Part shown: piece by piece, positions 44,646 to 49,759 of the stretch
Layout of the letters: every line of letters starts with the position of its first letter
Position numbering within the stretch: the stretch's first letter is position 1
From: a virus
Length of the DNA: 64,000 nt
Reading direction: 5' to 3' (one strand)
UHGV virus genome: UHGV-1493261
The notes under the pieces: model-generated
Database searches by the model: none
Seen by the model: the letters and a program-made list of their open reading frames with translations, nothing else
What the model was told of the DNA's origin: nothing
Program-made: the position numbers and the translations under genes

Positions 44646-44673
44646 CAACCCCGCCATGTGCGGGGTTTCTTTT
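44646..44673 (+). terminator. Rho-independent terminator
   Basis: CCCCGC-CATGT-GCGGGG followed by TTTCTTTT. Confidence 0.6.
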
Positions 44674-44684
44674 GGACAAAGAAT

Positions 44685-45059
44685 ATGAAACCTGTTATAT
44701 GTGATTACTGTGGCCTCCCAGCCGAATTCGTCGGTGGTGATGTTCTCTACCCTCATCGCCCTGACCTCCGTAATCTGAAGTTCTGGGTTTGCACCCCGTG
44801 TGATGCCCGTGTCGGTTGCCATGCCCATGGCGGCGGCAGACAACCTTTGGGAAGGATGGCGAATGCCGCTCTCCGTGCCGAGAAGCAAAATGCCCATAGA
44901 TCGTTTGACCCATTGTGGAAAAGCGGAGAGAGGAGCAGGAGCGACGCTTACAGTTGGCTGGCGCATAAGCTGGGGATAAAGAAGCGTGAGTGTCATATTG
45001 GTTTGTTCGATATCGACATGTGCCGTAAAGTAGTGGAGGTCTGTAAACAAATATCATAG
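44685..45059 (+). CDS. Zinc-ribbon protein (124 aa)
   Basis: CDYCG .. CTPCD cysteine pairs; internal ATG of track ORF 44658, whose GTG start lies in the terminator. Confidence 0.5.
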   Translation: MKPVICDYCGLPAEFVGGDVLYPHRPDLRNLKFWVCTPCDARVGCHAHGGGRQPLGRMANAALRAEKQNAHRSFDPLWKSGERSRSDAYSWLAHKLGIKKRECHIGLFDIDMCRKVVEVCKQIS

Positions 45060-45067
45060 GATAACAC

Positions 45068-45940
45068 ATGACAAATCGTACTGGCATAAAACTCACTCCT
45101 GAAGTCCTGAAGTCACATATCGCTGAGGTGATTTACGAAGACCGCGAAGTCGGCGGTCACCGGGCTATCACTTGTCATTTCAAGATGGATAACGGCTTCG
45201 TCGTTCACGGCACCAAGCCCAGCACATCCATAGACCCGGCCAACTTCGATGAAGCCCTGGGCAAAGAGATTTCCTACAATAACACCTTCGACCAGCTGTG
45301 GCAGCTGGAGGCGTACCGGGCGCTTGTTGAACAAGATCTGTTGGCCAAAGCCACGGAAACGGCAGAGATACAGATCGATCAATACGCTGTTGAACGTAGC
45401 GCCCTCTGTCCGGCCTATCACCTCGGCTTCAATGTGATGGTTCAGGAAGTGATGTTCAAAGCGGAAAATGGTGAGCGCTTCTTGGCATCTTTCGTTTGTG
45501 GGCCGGATGACATGGAACTTGTTGTTGAATCTCACAACGCCAAATCTCGTAAGGCTGTTAGTGATTTCCTGCGCGCCAACTCCAAACTCGATCTCACTTA
45601 TTCGCCATTGGTTCTGCGCATCGCCAAGATTTGTCATGAAGCCAACCGCGCATACTGCAAGTCTATTGGTGACGACTCTCAACTGCCTTGGGAACAATCT
45701 CCGGCCTGGCAGCGTGAGAGCGCTTGCAAAGGTGTTATCTTCCATCTCACTGGTGATCGTAAGCCCAGCGAATCGCATGAGAGATGGATGGCGGAGAAGG
45801 AGTCTGAGGGATGGGTGTATGGCCCAGTCAAAGACCCTCAGACCAAGCAACACCCTTGCATGGTTCCGTATGGAGAACTCCCGGTACAACAACGCTCCAA
45901 AGATTATATTTTCAAATCCATTGTAGACTCCTTTAAATAA
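45068..45940 (+). CDS. RyR-domain-containing protein
   Basis: C-terminal ESHERWMAEKESEGWVYGPVKDPQTKQHPCMVPYGELPVQQRSKD matches the RyR repeat pattern (W..GW.YG .. K.HP.LVPY.EL). Confidence 0.6.
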   Translation: MTNRTGIKLTPEVLKSHIAEVIYEDREVGGHRAITCHFKMDNGFVVHGTKPSTSIDPANFDEALGKEISYNNTFDQLWQLEAYRALVEQDLLAKATETAEIQIDQYAVERSALCPAYHLGFNVMVQEVMFKAENGERFLASFVCGPDDMELVVESHNAKSRKAVSDFLRANSKLDLTYSPLVLRIAKICHEANRAYCKSIGDDSQLPWEQSPAWQRESACKGVIFHLTGDRKPSESHERWMAEKESEGWVYGPVKDPQTKQHPCMVPYGELPVQQRSKDYIFKSIVDSFK

Positions 45941-46045: not shown

Positions 46046-46090
46046 AGTCCCATGTTGAAATAGTTGGGAAATATAACTCACGAGAGCCTG

Positions 46091-46267
46091 ATGACCGACA
46101 ACAAATTAAAACGCGCCGGACTTGATTGTCTTGACAATTCATTCCGCCCCAGTGATGTTCTGGTCGCCCAAATGGAAAACAACCGGGATTTCATTGAAAC
46201 TATGCTGGAGAACGCCGACGCGAACTCCAAACACTCCAAAGCCCAAAAAGGTCAAAACGATGATTGA
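46091..46267 (+). CDS. Small hypothetical protein (58 aa)
   Basis: ATG overlapping the vWA gene start. Confidence 0.35.
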   Translation: MTDNKLKRAGLDCLDNSFRPSDVLVAQMENNRDFIETMLENADANSKHSKAQKGQNDD

Positions 46268-48461
46268 GTCATTAACATTTAAGAATGCGGTTGCGACCGT
46301 CGCGCCGTCTAACCATGTAATCGTTGTGGATATCTCCGGTTCCATGTATCGTTCACTTCCAGAAGTCCGTAAGCATCTGAAGGAGAACCTGCCTTCCCTG
46401 GTGAAACCCGAAGATACTGTGAGCATCCTTTACTTTTCATCTCGCGGTGATTTCGGAACGGTATTTGCCGGACGTCAGATCGGTGTCGCATCTGACCTGA
46501 GCGAGCTGAATAAGCTGATCGACCGTTTCCTGCAACCATCCGGCTGTACTGGTTTTGTTGAGCCATTGAAACTGGCGATGGATACTGCGCGCGGCCTGAA
46601 GAAACCCGGCTACGTCAACAACCTGGCATTCATGACCGATGGTTATGACAACTGCTGGCGCTCCAATGAAATCCTGGATACCGCCGAAAAACTTCCTTCC
46701 GCGTTCGACAACGTTACATTCATCGAATACGGCTGGCACTGTAACCGTGAACTGCTGGCGCAGATGGCCGAACGCTCTGGTGCAACCCACGTTTTCGCCG
46801 AAGGTCAGACTGAATATCAGACCGAGCTGGAAAACGTGCTGAAGTCATCAGTGCCGAAGGTGAAAGTTGATGTCCCAGTCATCTACACCCATGCCATCTA
46901 CGTCGAAAACGGTGTGGCAACAGTACTGGCGGTGCAGGACGATGACGCTCACCCGGTCGGTTATGTGAGCATCCCTGAGAGCGTCACCAAGCTGTGGGTT
47001 GTAAACCCTAACATGATCGACCAGATGGATAGCCTGACGGACATCCAGGCGGCATACGTGCTGGCGTTCTACGGCGTACACACTATGGACGCAGATCTGG
47101 TTTGGGCTGCGCTGAAGAAGACGGGCGACGTTCGCTTCATCAAACAGTACAGCAACTGCTTCACCAAGCAGGACTACTCCAACATCAAGAACGATCTGAC
47201 CCAGGCCATCGTTGATGACCAGCTGCGCGGCGTTGACGGTATTGACTATGACCTGGTTCCAGCTGAAGATGCGACCACCGTCGTTGATGTGCTGACGTAC
47301 CTGGCTGAAGCTGGTGTGCCTGTTGCTACCAAGCATCCGATGTTCTCCTATAAGAGTATCGGGCGCGGTACGGTTCAGAAAACCGACGACACCGAAGACA
47401 AGCTGGCAGAACAGATCGCGAATGCTCAGTCCAAAGAAGAGCGTAAAGCCCTGGCTCTCAAGCTGGCAGAACACGAAGAGTGGAACCCGACGTTCGAACC
47501 TACCAACGACCTGGGTGTTGTGCCAATCAGCGATTTGGTCTATAATTCCGAACGCCCGAACATCAGTGTGCGTACAATTCAACACGGTACTGTGGCTGTG
47601 CCTGAATTCGCACAGAAGAAGTTTGGCCTGCCTGAAGAACTGGATACTTTCCAGTGGCGCAACTACACCATCGTCAAAGATGGTATCATCAACGTGAAGA
47701 CCCTGCCGTTCAAGGCTGATATCGAAGTTGTACAGAAGCTGATCGAAATGGGCGTCCACGTGTTTGGTGGTCCGGAAGTGTTCATCTTGAACCTGGAAAG
47801 CGTACCGCTGGTCAACCGCGCCATGGTCAAGAACATCAGTGCTGCTCAGTTCTTTGCGGATAATGTCCGTCTGGAAGCCCTGAAAGGCAAGCAGAAGGTG
47901 CTGAAGTTCTATCGAGACGCCCTGGTTGGTAAGGGTAACGCCAAAGGCCTGGCAGTACAGTACGGCGCTGAGGCGGCCGAGTTCCTGTCCTCCTATGGCA
48001 TCCGCGATTACGGCTTCTCACCGAAGACTGAGACCAAAGAGTCTACCGACTTCTACATGAGCCGTGAGCTGAACGTGAAGATCGCTGGCGCTTCTTCTCT
48101 ACCGTCTATCGCAGCGGTACAGAAGAAGATAGCCGAGAACAAGAAACTCAATGCTGGTGACTTGTTCATCGCCAATGCGCTGAAGGAGTACGAAGCATTC
48201 GTGAAGTCTCCTATGATCACTGCCGTGCCTGAAGCCTTACAGAAACATCTGATCGAAAACTGGATCGACGCTGCTGCCAAGGCGGCCATCACCGAAGTCC
48301 GTGCTCTGAACAAGACGCTGTCTAAAGTGGTGTATGGTATCGTTGCTGGTCATGGCTGGTTCACCGACCTCGACCTGGAAGAGTCCACCATGGAAGTTGA
48401 AGTGGATGGGGTGAAGTACAAGGTCACTGCCGAACTGGCAGAGAAAGAAATCAAAATCTAA
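46260..48461 (+). CDS. von Willebrand factor A (vWA) domain protein (733 aa)
   Basis: MIDAS motif VIVVDISGSM (DxSxS) near the N-terminus; AAAGG Shine-Dalgarno; long C-terminal region of unknown fold. Confidence 0.7.
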   Translation: MIESLTFKNAVATVAPSNHVIVVDISGSMYRSLPEVRKHLKENLPSLVKPEDTVSILYFSSRGDFGTVFAGRQIGVASDLSELNKLIDRFLQPSGCTGFVEPLKLAMDTARGLKKPGYVNNLAFMTDGYDNCWRSNEILDTAEKLPSAFDNVTFIEYGWHCNRELLAQMAERSGATHVFAEGQTEYQTELENVLKSSVPKVKVDVPVIYTHAIYVENGVATVLAVQDDDAHPVGYVSIPESVTKLWVVNPNMIDQMDSLTDIQAAYVLAFYGVHTMDADLVWAALKKTGDVRFIKQYSNCFTKQDYSNIKNDLTQAIVDDQLRGVDGIDYDLVPAEDATTVVDVLTYLAEAGVPVATKHPMFSYKSIGRGTVQKTDDTEDKLAEQIANAQSKEERKALALKLAEHEEWNPTFEPTNDLGVVPISDLVYNSERPNISVRTIQHGTVAVPEFAQKKFGLPEELDTFQWRNYTIVKDGIINVKTLPFKADIEVVQKLIEMGVHVFGGPEVFILNLESVPLVNRAMVKNISAAQFFADNVRLEALKGKQKVLKFYRDALVGKGNAKGLAVQYGAEAAEFLSSYGIRDYGFSPKTETKESTDFYMSRELNVKIAGASSLPSIAAVQKKIAENKKLNAGDLFIANALKEYEAFVKSPMITAVPEALQKHLIENWIDAAAKAAITEVRALNKTLSKVVYGIVAGHGWFTDLDLEESTMEVEVDGVKYKVTAELAEKEIKI

Positions 48462-48468
48462 TCCAACG

Positions 48469-48490
48469 GGCGGGTTGCCCCGCCTTTCTT
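48469..48490 (+). terminator. Terminator hairpin
   Basis: GGCGGG-TTG-CCCCGCC followed by TTTCTTT. Confidence 0.5.
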
Positions 48491-48503
48491 TGGGAGAAGT
48501 AGC

Positions 48504-48830
48504 ATGAGCAGTAAACCAACATATGTTGAAGTCATGCGTCATCTGGCTCAGTACGCCACTGACAATTTGAACTTAGATGCAGATGAGGTGAAATACCCAG
48601 ACGTCAAGAAAATGATTGACGGCGAAGTTGTCATAGACGATGCGTTGGACAAGTTTGCAGGCCTCCGCACCAAGAAAGATCTGGGTGGTGACGAACTCGA
48701 TACCATCGAAATCGTGATGGACCTGGAAGAAGAGTTCAACGTCGAAATCGACGACGGTTGGCTAGGTAGTAAAGGCGATGACCCGACCATGGGTGAACTC
48801 GCTGAACTCGTGGTTGCCCTGCGCAAATAA
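48504..48830 (+). CDS. Acyl carrier protein-like protein lacking the phosphopantetheine-attachment serine
   Basis: DLGGDELDTIEIVMDLEEEFNVEIDD versus E. coli ACP [26 protein letters not shown]: 19 of 26 identical, with the conserved Ser replaced by Glu (GAA at 48693-48695). GGGAGAAG Shine-Dalgarno. Confidence 0.7.
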   Translation: MSSKPTYVEVMRHLAQYATDNLNLDADEVKYPDVKKMIDGEVVIDDALDKFAGLRTKKDLGGDELDTIEIVMDLEEEFNVEIDDGWLGSKGDDPTMGELAELVVALRK

Positions 48831-48836
48831 CAGAAG

Positions 48837-48862
48837 TCCCCAACAAACGTTGGGGATTTTTA
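48837..48862 (+). terminator. Rho-independent terminator
   Basis: TCCCCAAC-aaac-GTTGGGGA followed by TTTTT. Confidence 0.6.
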
Positions 48863-48872
48863 CTTTTAGGGG

Positions 48873-48902
48873 GTTTACTTCCTCTAAGGAATGTCCTATT
48901 AT
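48873..48902 (+). promoter_or_regulatory. Sigma70-like early promoter candidate
   Basis: GTTTAC -35 (T4 early-like), 18-nt spacer, TATTAT -10. Confidence 0.45.
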
Positions 48903-48953: not shown

Positions 48954-49193
48954 ATGAAGAACAAAATGGTCGAAACTTCAGTAGAGATTGATCGCAATTG
49001 GGGATTGCTCCGCGCTAAAGGGTTCCGTCGTGTGTATGCGACCAAAGAAGTCTACGCACAGCGCCGTGACGTTATCATCAGCAAGAAAGGCAAAGAGTGG
49101 GTTGCTGAAGAAGTTGATGTCGAGACAGGCATCGTAGGAAAGGTAAAGGCCAAGGCCGTGATCCTCTTCGCTCTTCTGAAGCACATCAGTTAA
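48954..49193 (+). CDS. Hypothetical protein (79 aa)
   Basis: ATG with AAGGTAAGA Shine-Dalgarno. Confidence 0.5.
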   Translation: MKNKMVETSVEIDRNWGLLRAKGFRRVYATKEVYAQRRDVIISKKGKEWVAEEVDVETGIVGKVKAKAVILFALLKHIS

Positions 49194-49196
49194 TTC

Positions 49197-49238
49197 TATA
49201 ACTTTGGGCGGGGTATGATTACCCCGTCTATTTGAAAT
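49197..49238 (+). promoter_or_regulatory. Cassette: TATAAC, hairpin CGGGGTATGATTACCCCG, TATTTGAAAT
   Basis: Hairpin core identical to the copy at 49765-49786. Confidence 0.45.
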
Positions 49239-49252
49239 GCAGGAACTATACC

Positions 49253-49759
49253 ATGACCGATCAACAAATTCAAGATTTATTTTACCTCGTCCATGATAAG
49301 TCCCACATCATGCGCCCCGGTACTGTTTCCCCTGCCGTCCGTGATCTGGTGCAAGAATTGCGCGAACCACAGACGACCACACTTTATCGCGGGTTGCCTA
49401 AAGAGGACGTTGCGCGTTTAGAGATGATGTTTGAACGAGGCGACATGTTCCAGACATGGGATTCTTGCCTTAGCTTCAGTGAACTGAAGCATGTGGCCAA
49501 AAAATTTTCTAAATCGTACGGAACCCAAGCTGTTGCCCGCATTTGTTACAAACATCGAAACAGACTCCCGGAGGGGCTTAATGTCTATGGTTCTCTAGAA
49601 AAATTTGTGAACAAAGGCGATGAATCAGAAATGGATATGCTGGACTTGGCGTCCATGGAGAAAGAATGGATATTCTGCCAGCCTCGCGTCATACCAGTTT
49701 CAAGAAAAATGGCAACAGACGGGACGATGGTTTTTACCGTATCACTTGTTACTCTATAA
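49253..49759 (+). CDS. Hypothetical protein (168 aa), candidate mono-ADP-ribosyltransferase
   Basis: Possible R-S-E triad: YRG, SxS in WDSCLSFSE, ExE in MEKEWIF. Assignment is speculative. Confidence 0.5.
   Translation: MTDQQIQDLFYLVHDKSHIMRPGTVSPAVRDLVQELREPQTTTLYRGLPKEDVARLEMMFERGDMFQTWDSCLSFSELKHVAKKFSKSYGTQAVARICYKHRNRLPEGLNVYGSLEKFVNKGDESEMDMLDLASMEKEWIFCQPRVIPVSRKMATDGTMVFTVSLVTL

Follow-up and report, generated by a model that had tools for sequence, protein, structure and literature searches.

The stretch of DNA analysed here, referred to as the window, comprises 64,000 nucleotides of the virus genome UHGV-1493261. On its plus strand, at positions 48504-48830 (stop codon included), it carries a gene for an acidic 108-aa protein (pI 4.2) that resembles acyl carrier proteins (ACPs). 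The open reading frame starts with ATG and is preceded by the ribosome-binding site GGGAG at 48492-48496. As the original prediction had stated, it lies directly downstream of a gene for a vWA protein (46260-48461, plus strand; Pfam VWA), and this adjacency is constant within the Ackermannviridae loci examined. The vWA protein has 733 aa and an intact MIDAS motif, of which residues D24, S26, S28, T97, and D127 are invariant or nearly so; its real start is probably the ATG at 46260, the listed 779-aa ORF with a TTG start being too long. A small ORF at 46064-46267 (plus strand; 57-70 aa in relatives) runs a few bases into the vWA gene in every locus examined, suggesting that the two are translationally coupled. 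Further upstream, the window encodes a 290-aa protein combining an N4 gp49/Sf6 gp66 domain with a RyR domain (45068-45940, plus strand) and, adjacent to it, a 133-aa DUF3268 zinc-finger protein (44658-45059, plus strand), both of which are kept upstream of the vWA gene in Ackermannviridae. Two genes downstream of the ACP-like gene, a 175-aa ORF (49232-49759, plus strand) matches phrog_832, 'RNA polymerase ADP-ribosylase' (Alt-like), with an E-value of 1e-15 over the C-terminal part of the profile.

The ACP-like gene is flanked by two hairpins. The first, a GC-rich, terminator-like hairpin followed by a T-run (48468-48492, plus strand), is located between the vWA stop and the ACP-like start. 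It is found at the same place in seven divergent loci (the window, L001-L005, and L008), its stem sequences differ among them, and the annotations of phages Marshall and Menlow record it as a terminator. The second hairpin with a T-run, likewise GC-rich and terminator-like (48832-48861, plus strand), follows directly after the ACP-like stop and is present in six of the seven loci compared. The position of the gene and its ribosome-binding site are kept across the compared loci along with the flanking hairpins, and the gap 5' of the ACP-like gene spans only 41-52 nt, which leaves no space for a promoter. Given that differing stems occupy the same place, we infer that selection acts on the hairpin structure, and that the gene is expressed by terminator read-through or RNA processing. 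Past the downstream hairpin, within 48862-48902, there is a conserved, promoter-like motif 'GTTTACTTC' (TTTACT-17-TATTAT, site 48874-48902), which Vi01, Marshall, Menlow, L004, and L008 have at the equivalent position and L005 has there in degenerate form; it probably drives the gene that follows (48954-49193). The vWA stop and the ACP-like ATG of the window share one frame, and the 42-nt gap between the genes (48462-48503) contains no other stop. A read-through fusion of the two proteins was considered and rejected, since the frame relation is lost in Vi01 and a conserved hairpin separates the genes; the shared frame is probably coincidental.

An ortholog with an intact ORF is present in 272 phage records from several genera. 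These phages have genomes of ~150-160 kb, infect Salmonella, Klebsiella, Escherichia, Dickeya, Shigella, Serratia, Enterobacter, and Yersinia, and include Kuttervirus Vi01, Taipeivirus Menlow, and their relatives (Ackermannviridae). Nearest among the records are Shigella phage MK-13 (95%) and Salmonella phage Marshall (94%). The source phage is a Vi01-like member of the Ackermannviridae, and not a T4-like phage as had been supposed; the placement of the gene in an accessory region was also incorrect. A profile search run exhaustively over 1.84 billion cluster representatives yielded only about 11 clusters at E<=1e-10, and the three divergent members that we looked up occupy the same position in Ackermannviridae-type contigs, where the order is DUF8224 protein, 123-aa protein, gp49-like protein, small ORF, vWA protein of ~740 aa, and ACP-like gene. 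Most of the 272 records label the gene 'acyl carrier protein'.

Several searches bear on this label. The 108-aa protein matches the Pfam family PP-binding (PF00550) with 23.7 bits, over the gathering score of 20.8, and PF14573 with 29.3 bits, under the gathering score of 32. It also matches the PHROG phrog_4154, 'acyl carrier protein', end to end (E-value 1.9e-54, residues 1-108 on profile positions 1-108), a family that PHROGs places in the category 'moron, auxiliary metabolic gene and host takeover'. A phmmer search against all PDB sequences returned acyl carrier proteins only, and BLASTP aligned residues 58-84 with E. coli AcpP at 18 of 27 identities, in agreement with the earlier observation that the helix II region resembles that of ACP. 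At the level of sequence, this resemblance is real and far beyond chance. All ten NCBIfam ACP models matched by the protein scored under their cut-offs: the best was the AcpP equivalog model TIGR00517 (36.4 bits, cut-off 70.45), and the score for the PRK00982 equivalog also fell below its cut-off. NCBIfam returned nothing beyond these sub-threshold ACP matches, and PADLOC yielded no meaningful match. An AlphaFold2 model built from a 23-sequence family alignment was of moderate confidence (pLDDT 70) and places helices at residues 7-21, 32-38, 45-52, 64-78, 84-87, and 96-106. When this model was compared with the PDB using Foldseek, nearly all matches were ACPs, with probabilities of ~1 and TM-scores of up to 0.78 (target-normalised), while the E-values were weak. 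The protein is thus predicted to consist of a four-helix carrier core and an extra N-terminal helix, in line with the fold that had been anticipated for it.

The N-terminal extension of ~30 aa noted previously is borne out, as alignments to ACP HMMs begin only at residues 31-34. For the same reason, the helix formed by residues 7-21 (48522-48566, plus strand), which canonical ACPs do not have, is a family-specific addition; within it and directly after it, Y7, V10, L14, A18, N21, and L22 are invariant in the family alignment. Residues 60-84 (LGGDELDTIEIVMDLEEEFNVEIDD; 48681-48755, plus strand) correspond to AcpP residues 32-56 and comprise the helix II recognition surface and the start of helix III. 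They are followed by residues 85-99 (GWLGSKGDDPTMGEL; 48756-48800, plus strand), which contain a family-specific insert marked by W86, G88, D92, D93, and P94, and then Thr95. This C-terminal insert is common to the family and to its nearest serine-bearing relatives, the proteins P0039 and P0042. Compared to AcpP, the phage protein therefore carries both the extra N-terminal part and a nine-residue insert before helix IV. By fold it belongs to the carrier-protein superfamily, but it is no functional ACP.

The latter conclusion follows from the residue at the attachment site. The codon GAA at 48693-48695 (plus strand) places Glu64 where the D-S-L motif has its phosphopantetheine-attachment serine, and Glu64 aligns opposite this serine in the phmmer alignments to ACPs of the PDB; codon and alignments thus agree with the replacement that the original prediction reported. 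All of the ~30 distinct homologs that we read, which come from the genera of Ackermannviridae and from metagenomic relatives and go down to 36% identity, have Glu or Asp at this site and never Ser. Clustering at 90% identity gave 23 clusters, 20 with Glu, two with Asp, and one that is truncated and lacks the motif. The site column of a 21-sequence alignment (36-94% identity) holds 14 Glu and seven Asp, the residue being Asp in Vi01 and Glu in Menlow. Glu is found in eight of eight IMG/VR loci, and either Asp or Glu occupies the site in the distant members P0024-P0029, P0032, and P0044. The loss of serine is, by these alignments, not a strain-specific mutation. Homologs with serine, which would have refuted the original prediction, were not found, and Glu alternates with Asp across the family. 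What the earlier reading did not contain is that the replacement is strictly acidic, and not just any residue other than serine: Ser, Ala, Gly, Asn, and Thr were all absent from this position among the family sequences read. Because Ala, Gly, Asn, and Thr never occur instead, the acidic residue itself would seem to matter, and the pattern suggests that the carboxylate at the site is functional in its own right.

Phosphopantetheine is attached to ACPs only at the DSL serine. Without it, the phage protein would not be converted to holo-ACP and would not carry thioester-linked acyl groups in the known way. While E. coli AcpP has Ser36, and its apo form is only a transient precursor, the phage protein has Glu or Asp at this position and would never become holo. 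The proposal of a non-modifiable protein with an ACP fold and a preserved docking helix is therefore supported, as serine is missing from all homologs read, the predicted structure is an ACP fold, helix II is the best conserved part of the protein, and the gene is under purifying selection. The nearest relatives outside the family that share its C-terminal insert, P0039 and P0042, retain the serine, and P0039 is encoded on a bacterial contig.

The family is under purifying selection, with dN/dS values of 0.10-0.25 against orthologs in comparisons with unsaturated dS. In the 21-sequence alignment, mean pairwise identity is highest in helix II (0.66, residues 60-78), followed by helix IV (0.57, residues 94-108), the insert (0.52, residues 85-93), the N-terminal helix (0.48, residues 1-23), and the linker (0.22, residues 24-52). 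D63, L65, I68, E69, and E75 are invariant in this alignment, D66, M72, I82, and D84 are kept in 20 of 21 sequences, position 76 is Glu or Asp in 18 of 21, and E77 is among the invariant or near-invariant residues. Helix II is the surface by which AcpP docks on its partner enzymes, and the conserved positions can be matched to it: D63, L65, D66, I68, and E69 correspond to AcpP D35, L37, D38, V40, and E41, and M72, E75, E77, I82, and D84 to AcpP M44, E47, E49, I54, and D56. The acidic equivalents of AcpP D35, D38, E41, E47, E48, and D56 are all retained. Judged from these alignments, selection keeps the docking surface, the acidic site residue, the N-terminal helix, and the W86/G88/D92-D93-P94 residues of the insert.

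How might a carrier protein that cannot be loaded serve a phage? It is probably a decoy or adaptor that works by binding, and not the lipid carrier of the databases. We give about even odds to the protein being a non-loadable surrogate of host AcpP that acts by protein-protein binding. Helix II would dock at basic ACP-binding sites, which would then be taken up with no substrate being delivered, and the likeliest targets would be host proteins that bind ACP regardless of its prosthetic group, namely PlsB, AcpS, and the MukB neck. Apo-ACP is the substrate of AcpS. The AcpP residues that form ion pairs with this enzyme are D35, E41, and E47/E48 (bioRxiv 10.1101/2025.01.28.635281), and the contact positions D35, E41, E47, and E48 are retained in the phage protein. 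Apo-ACP strongly inhibits the glycerol-3-phosphate acyltransferase PlsB as well as growth (reviewed in PMC3896788), and the ATPase of MukB is stimulated equally by apo- and holo-AcpP (PMC8602292). From the list of clients drawn up in the original prediction, PlsB and AcpS are hence plausible, whereas SpoT, which does not bind apo-ACP (PMC3896788), is an unlikely one. Such binding would change how the infected host makes its membrane lipids or handles its chromosome.

Two considerations speak against simple competition. AcpP is among the most abundant proteins of E. coli, accounting for 0.25% of soluble protein (PMC3896788), and a simple competitor would therefore need either high expression or higher affinity. 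Very high expression is argued against by the position of the gene behind a conserved terminator-like hairpin and without promoter space of its own. In addition, simple mimicry of AcpP does not account for the conserved N-terminal helix and the W86/G88/DDP insert, which suggest a family-specific partner. More specifically, and more tentatively, the protein could be a permanently unloaded AcpP mimic in which Glu or Asp imitates the phosphate of phosphopantetheine, allowing it to bind ACP-docking sites more tightly than apo-AcpP. The acidic residue at position 64 could supply a negative charge at the place that the prosthetic group's phosphodiester takes up in holo-ACP; alternatively, it could ligate a metal in the site of the partner. 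If the mimicry is true, the protein would halt or divert the synthesis of membrane lipids or the organisation of the chromosome in the infected host, with PlsB, AcpS, MukB, or lipid A acyltransferases as candidate docking sites, and it would, to our knowledge, be without precedent among viruses as a demonstrated mimic of a carrier-protein cofactor.

A partner encoded by the phage itself is a less probable reading, although the best of the alternatives. Here, the protein would be an adaptor or subunit, and its acidic residue might, for example, serve as the metal ligand of the MIDAS site in the vWA protein. The ligands of MIDAS sites contribute an acidic side chain, as those of integrin I-domains do, and the motif of the vWA protein is intact. 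The adjacency of the two genes, however, is observed within one fully syntenic phage family and therefore counts for little. Of the 504 phage records with the vWA family, many do not have the ACP-like gene, which occurs in 272. Its carriers include Ackermannviridae, Straboviridae (RB43, RB16, and Miro), Shewanella phage Thanatos-1, Pseudomonas phage pf16, and Aeromonas phage TSW001, and it is also found on contigs of more than 400 kb. No ACP-like ORF was present within 3 kb of the vWA gene in RB43, Thanatos-1, pf16, or TSW001, so that co-occurrence of the two was not seen beyond the one syntenic lineage. Further points against such a pair are the conserved hairpin between the genes and their levels of conservation (72-83% for the vWA protein versus 36-63% for the ACP-like protein), which are unlike those of tightly co-evolving partners. 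The AlphaFold2 model of the vWA protein is confident (pLDDT 88), but a fold search with it recovered only generic vWA plus beta-sandwich matches (4fx5, ArnB, and ITIH1), so that just this part resembles known structures, and no domain resembling those of ACP clients; a search of PDB sequences gave no match. We therefore rejected the vWA protein as an obligatory partner and regard it as a weak candidate, linked to the ACP-like protein by adjacency in a single syntenic lineage.

The acidity of the ACP-like protein might instead point to a generic mimic of DNA or other polyanions, comparable to Ocr, ArdA, or gp5.9, for which the ACP scaffold would be no more than a compact acidic surface that blocks DNA-binding host defences, and we consider this improbable. 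The protein contains 27 Asp and Glu among its 108 residues, its gene forms a small cassette of its own in a region of early/middle type in a virulent phage, and the category assigned by PHROGs includes host takeover. Moreover, gp5.9 of phage T7, an acidic mimic, targets MukBEF, which also binds AcpP (PMC7617805). T7 Ocr and gp5.9 are likewise small, very acidic, single-gene products of the host-takeover type that occupy a binding site (PMC7617805), but they mimic DNA, while the ACP-like protein would mimic a protein cofactor-carrier. Its acidity is also no greater than that of AcpP (computed pI of 4.19 and 4.05, respectively), its conserved positions are the helix II contacts of AcpP and not an array resembling DNA phosphates, and no known anti-restriction family was matched in Pfam, PHROGs, or PADLOC.

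It is very improbable that the protein is still a carrier, with another residue or unconventional chemistry (e.g. at Glu/Asp64 or Thr95) attaching a prosthetic group or substrate. An invariant acidic residue does occupy the canonical site, Thr95 is invariant at a helix N-cap, and the Alt-like ADP-ribosyltransferase homolog is encoded two genes downstream. We examined Thr95, in 'DDPTMGEL', as an alternative modification site and rejected it, since ordinary ACPs have their canonical helix IV N-cap Thr at this place in the alignment ('TTVQAAIDYI' in E. coli). We know of no phosphopantetheinylation on Glu, Asp, or Thr, and in phage Marshall the annotation of the 40 kb surrounding the ortholog contains no gene for lipid or polyketide synthesis or for a PPTase. 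Finally, although the defining catalytic-site residue has been lost, the idea that an ACP gene captured from a host or phage is now decaying and functionless is effectively refuted by the selection data, that is, by the low dN/dS, the ORF being intact across the 272 records and several genera, the conserved position, ribosome-binding site, and flanking hairpins, and the concentration of conservation on the functional surface.

The protein can be compared with bona fide phage ACPs and with ACP-fold subunits. The Pseudomonas jumbo phage HRDY3 has two ACP genes, which are likewise phage-borne, share a near-identical helix II (DLGGDSLDMIEIVMSLEEEF), and carry the same annotation. These proteins keep the DSL serine and could be loaded, while the Ackermannviridae family lacks it in all members examined. 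Structural subunits with an ACP fold are also known, such as SDAP/NDUFAB1 of mitochondrial complex I, the trypanosomal mt-SAF32, and an ACP-like subunit of Tetrahymena complex IV. Mitochondrial ACP subunits normally keep the serine and bind LYR partners through the acyl-phosphopantetheine arm; the phage protein, in contrast, has no evident partner of the LYR type.

Numerous ACP-like proteins without the serine also turned up outside the family in the profile search of cluster representatives. In the metagenomic proteins P0034, P0037, and P0043, D-[E/D]-L-D replaces D-S-L-D within an otherwise AcpP-like helix II; they are of canonical length (86-98 aa) and share the motif 'DLGGDELD'. The corresponding loci, L006 and L007, are short, phage-like contigs of small, tightly packed ORFs with no vWA gene directly upstream, and no close relatives of P0034 or P0037 were found among isolated phages. 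In a second set (P0094, P0102, P0068, P0089, P0107, P0110, P0122, P0152, and P0158), D-[E/D]-L-D is combined with an N-terminal lipoprotein signal peptide. Genes of this type (loci L024-L027) stand alone on bacterial metagenome contigs, for instance beside a PPIase and an MR_MLE enzyme, and an exported ACP fold would have no role in cytoplasmic lipid synthesis. P0034, P0037, P0043, P0094, P0102, and others of the lipoprotein type do not have the N-terminal helix of the Ackermannviridae family. These 'pseudo-ACPs' may form a broader, undescribed class, the frequency of which is not to be read from our search, as a query profile with Glu at the site favours the recovery of serine-less proteins.

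Searches of PubMed Central and bioRxiv revealed no paper that notes the missing serine or gives the family a function. Nor did they return anything specific on serine-less phage ACPs, on the timing of Kuttervirus expression, or on AcpP in phage defence, and they yielded no expression-timing, toxicity, or knockout data for the gene. The sole trace that they returned is a single peptide retrieval listed under 'putative acyl carrier protein' among the mass-spectrometry results for phage Sajous1 (PMC10892097). In Klebsiella NCTC8172, the escape mutation after exposure to the phages cp34 and mtp5 was a non-synonymous point mutation in the host acpP gene (PMC10433977); mtp5 is a Slopekvirus, a group with a vWA homolog and without the ACP-like gene.

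The family is thus already represented in GenBank and PHROGs, under a name, 'acyl carrier protein', that its sequence marks as functionally misleading: several hundred annotations in these resources imply a role as lipid carrier that the sequence rules out. It is a pseudo-carrier within the ACP superfamily and not categorically new, given that phage decoys and pseudo-enzymes are common and that the ACP fold is used structurally elsewhere. Correct functional labels matter in these phages, as Ackermannviridae such as CBA120, Vi01, and LIMEstone serve, or have been put forward, as agents of biocontrol and therapy. That the serine is replaced by strictly acidic residues provides a sharp and cheap experimental handle, and a protein that proves to be a mimic would offer a natural scaffold for inhibitors of ACP-dependent enzymes, themselves targets of antibiotics. 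AcpP is an essential hub that connects fatty-acid, phospholipid, lipid A, biotin, and lipoate synthesis as well as MukBEF. A natural, non-loadable protein that fits the docking sites of AcpP would show how a large family of virulent phages manipulates this hub.
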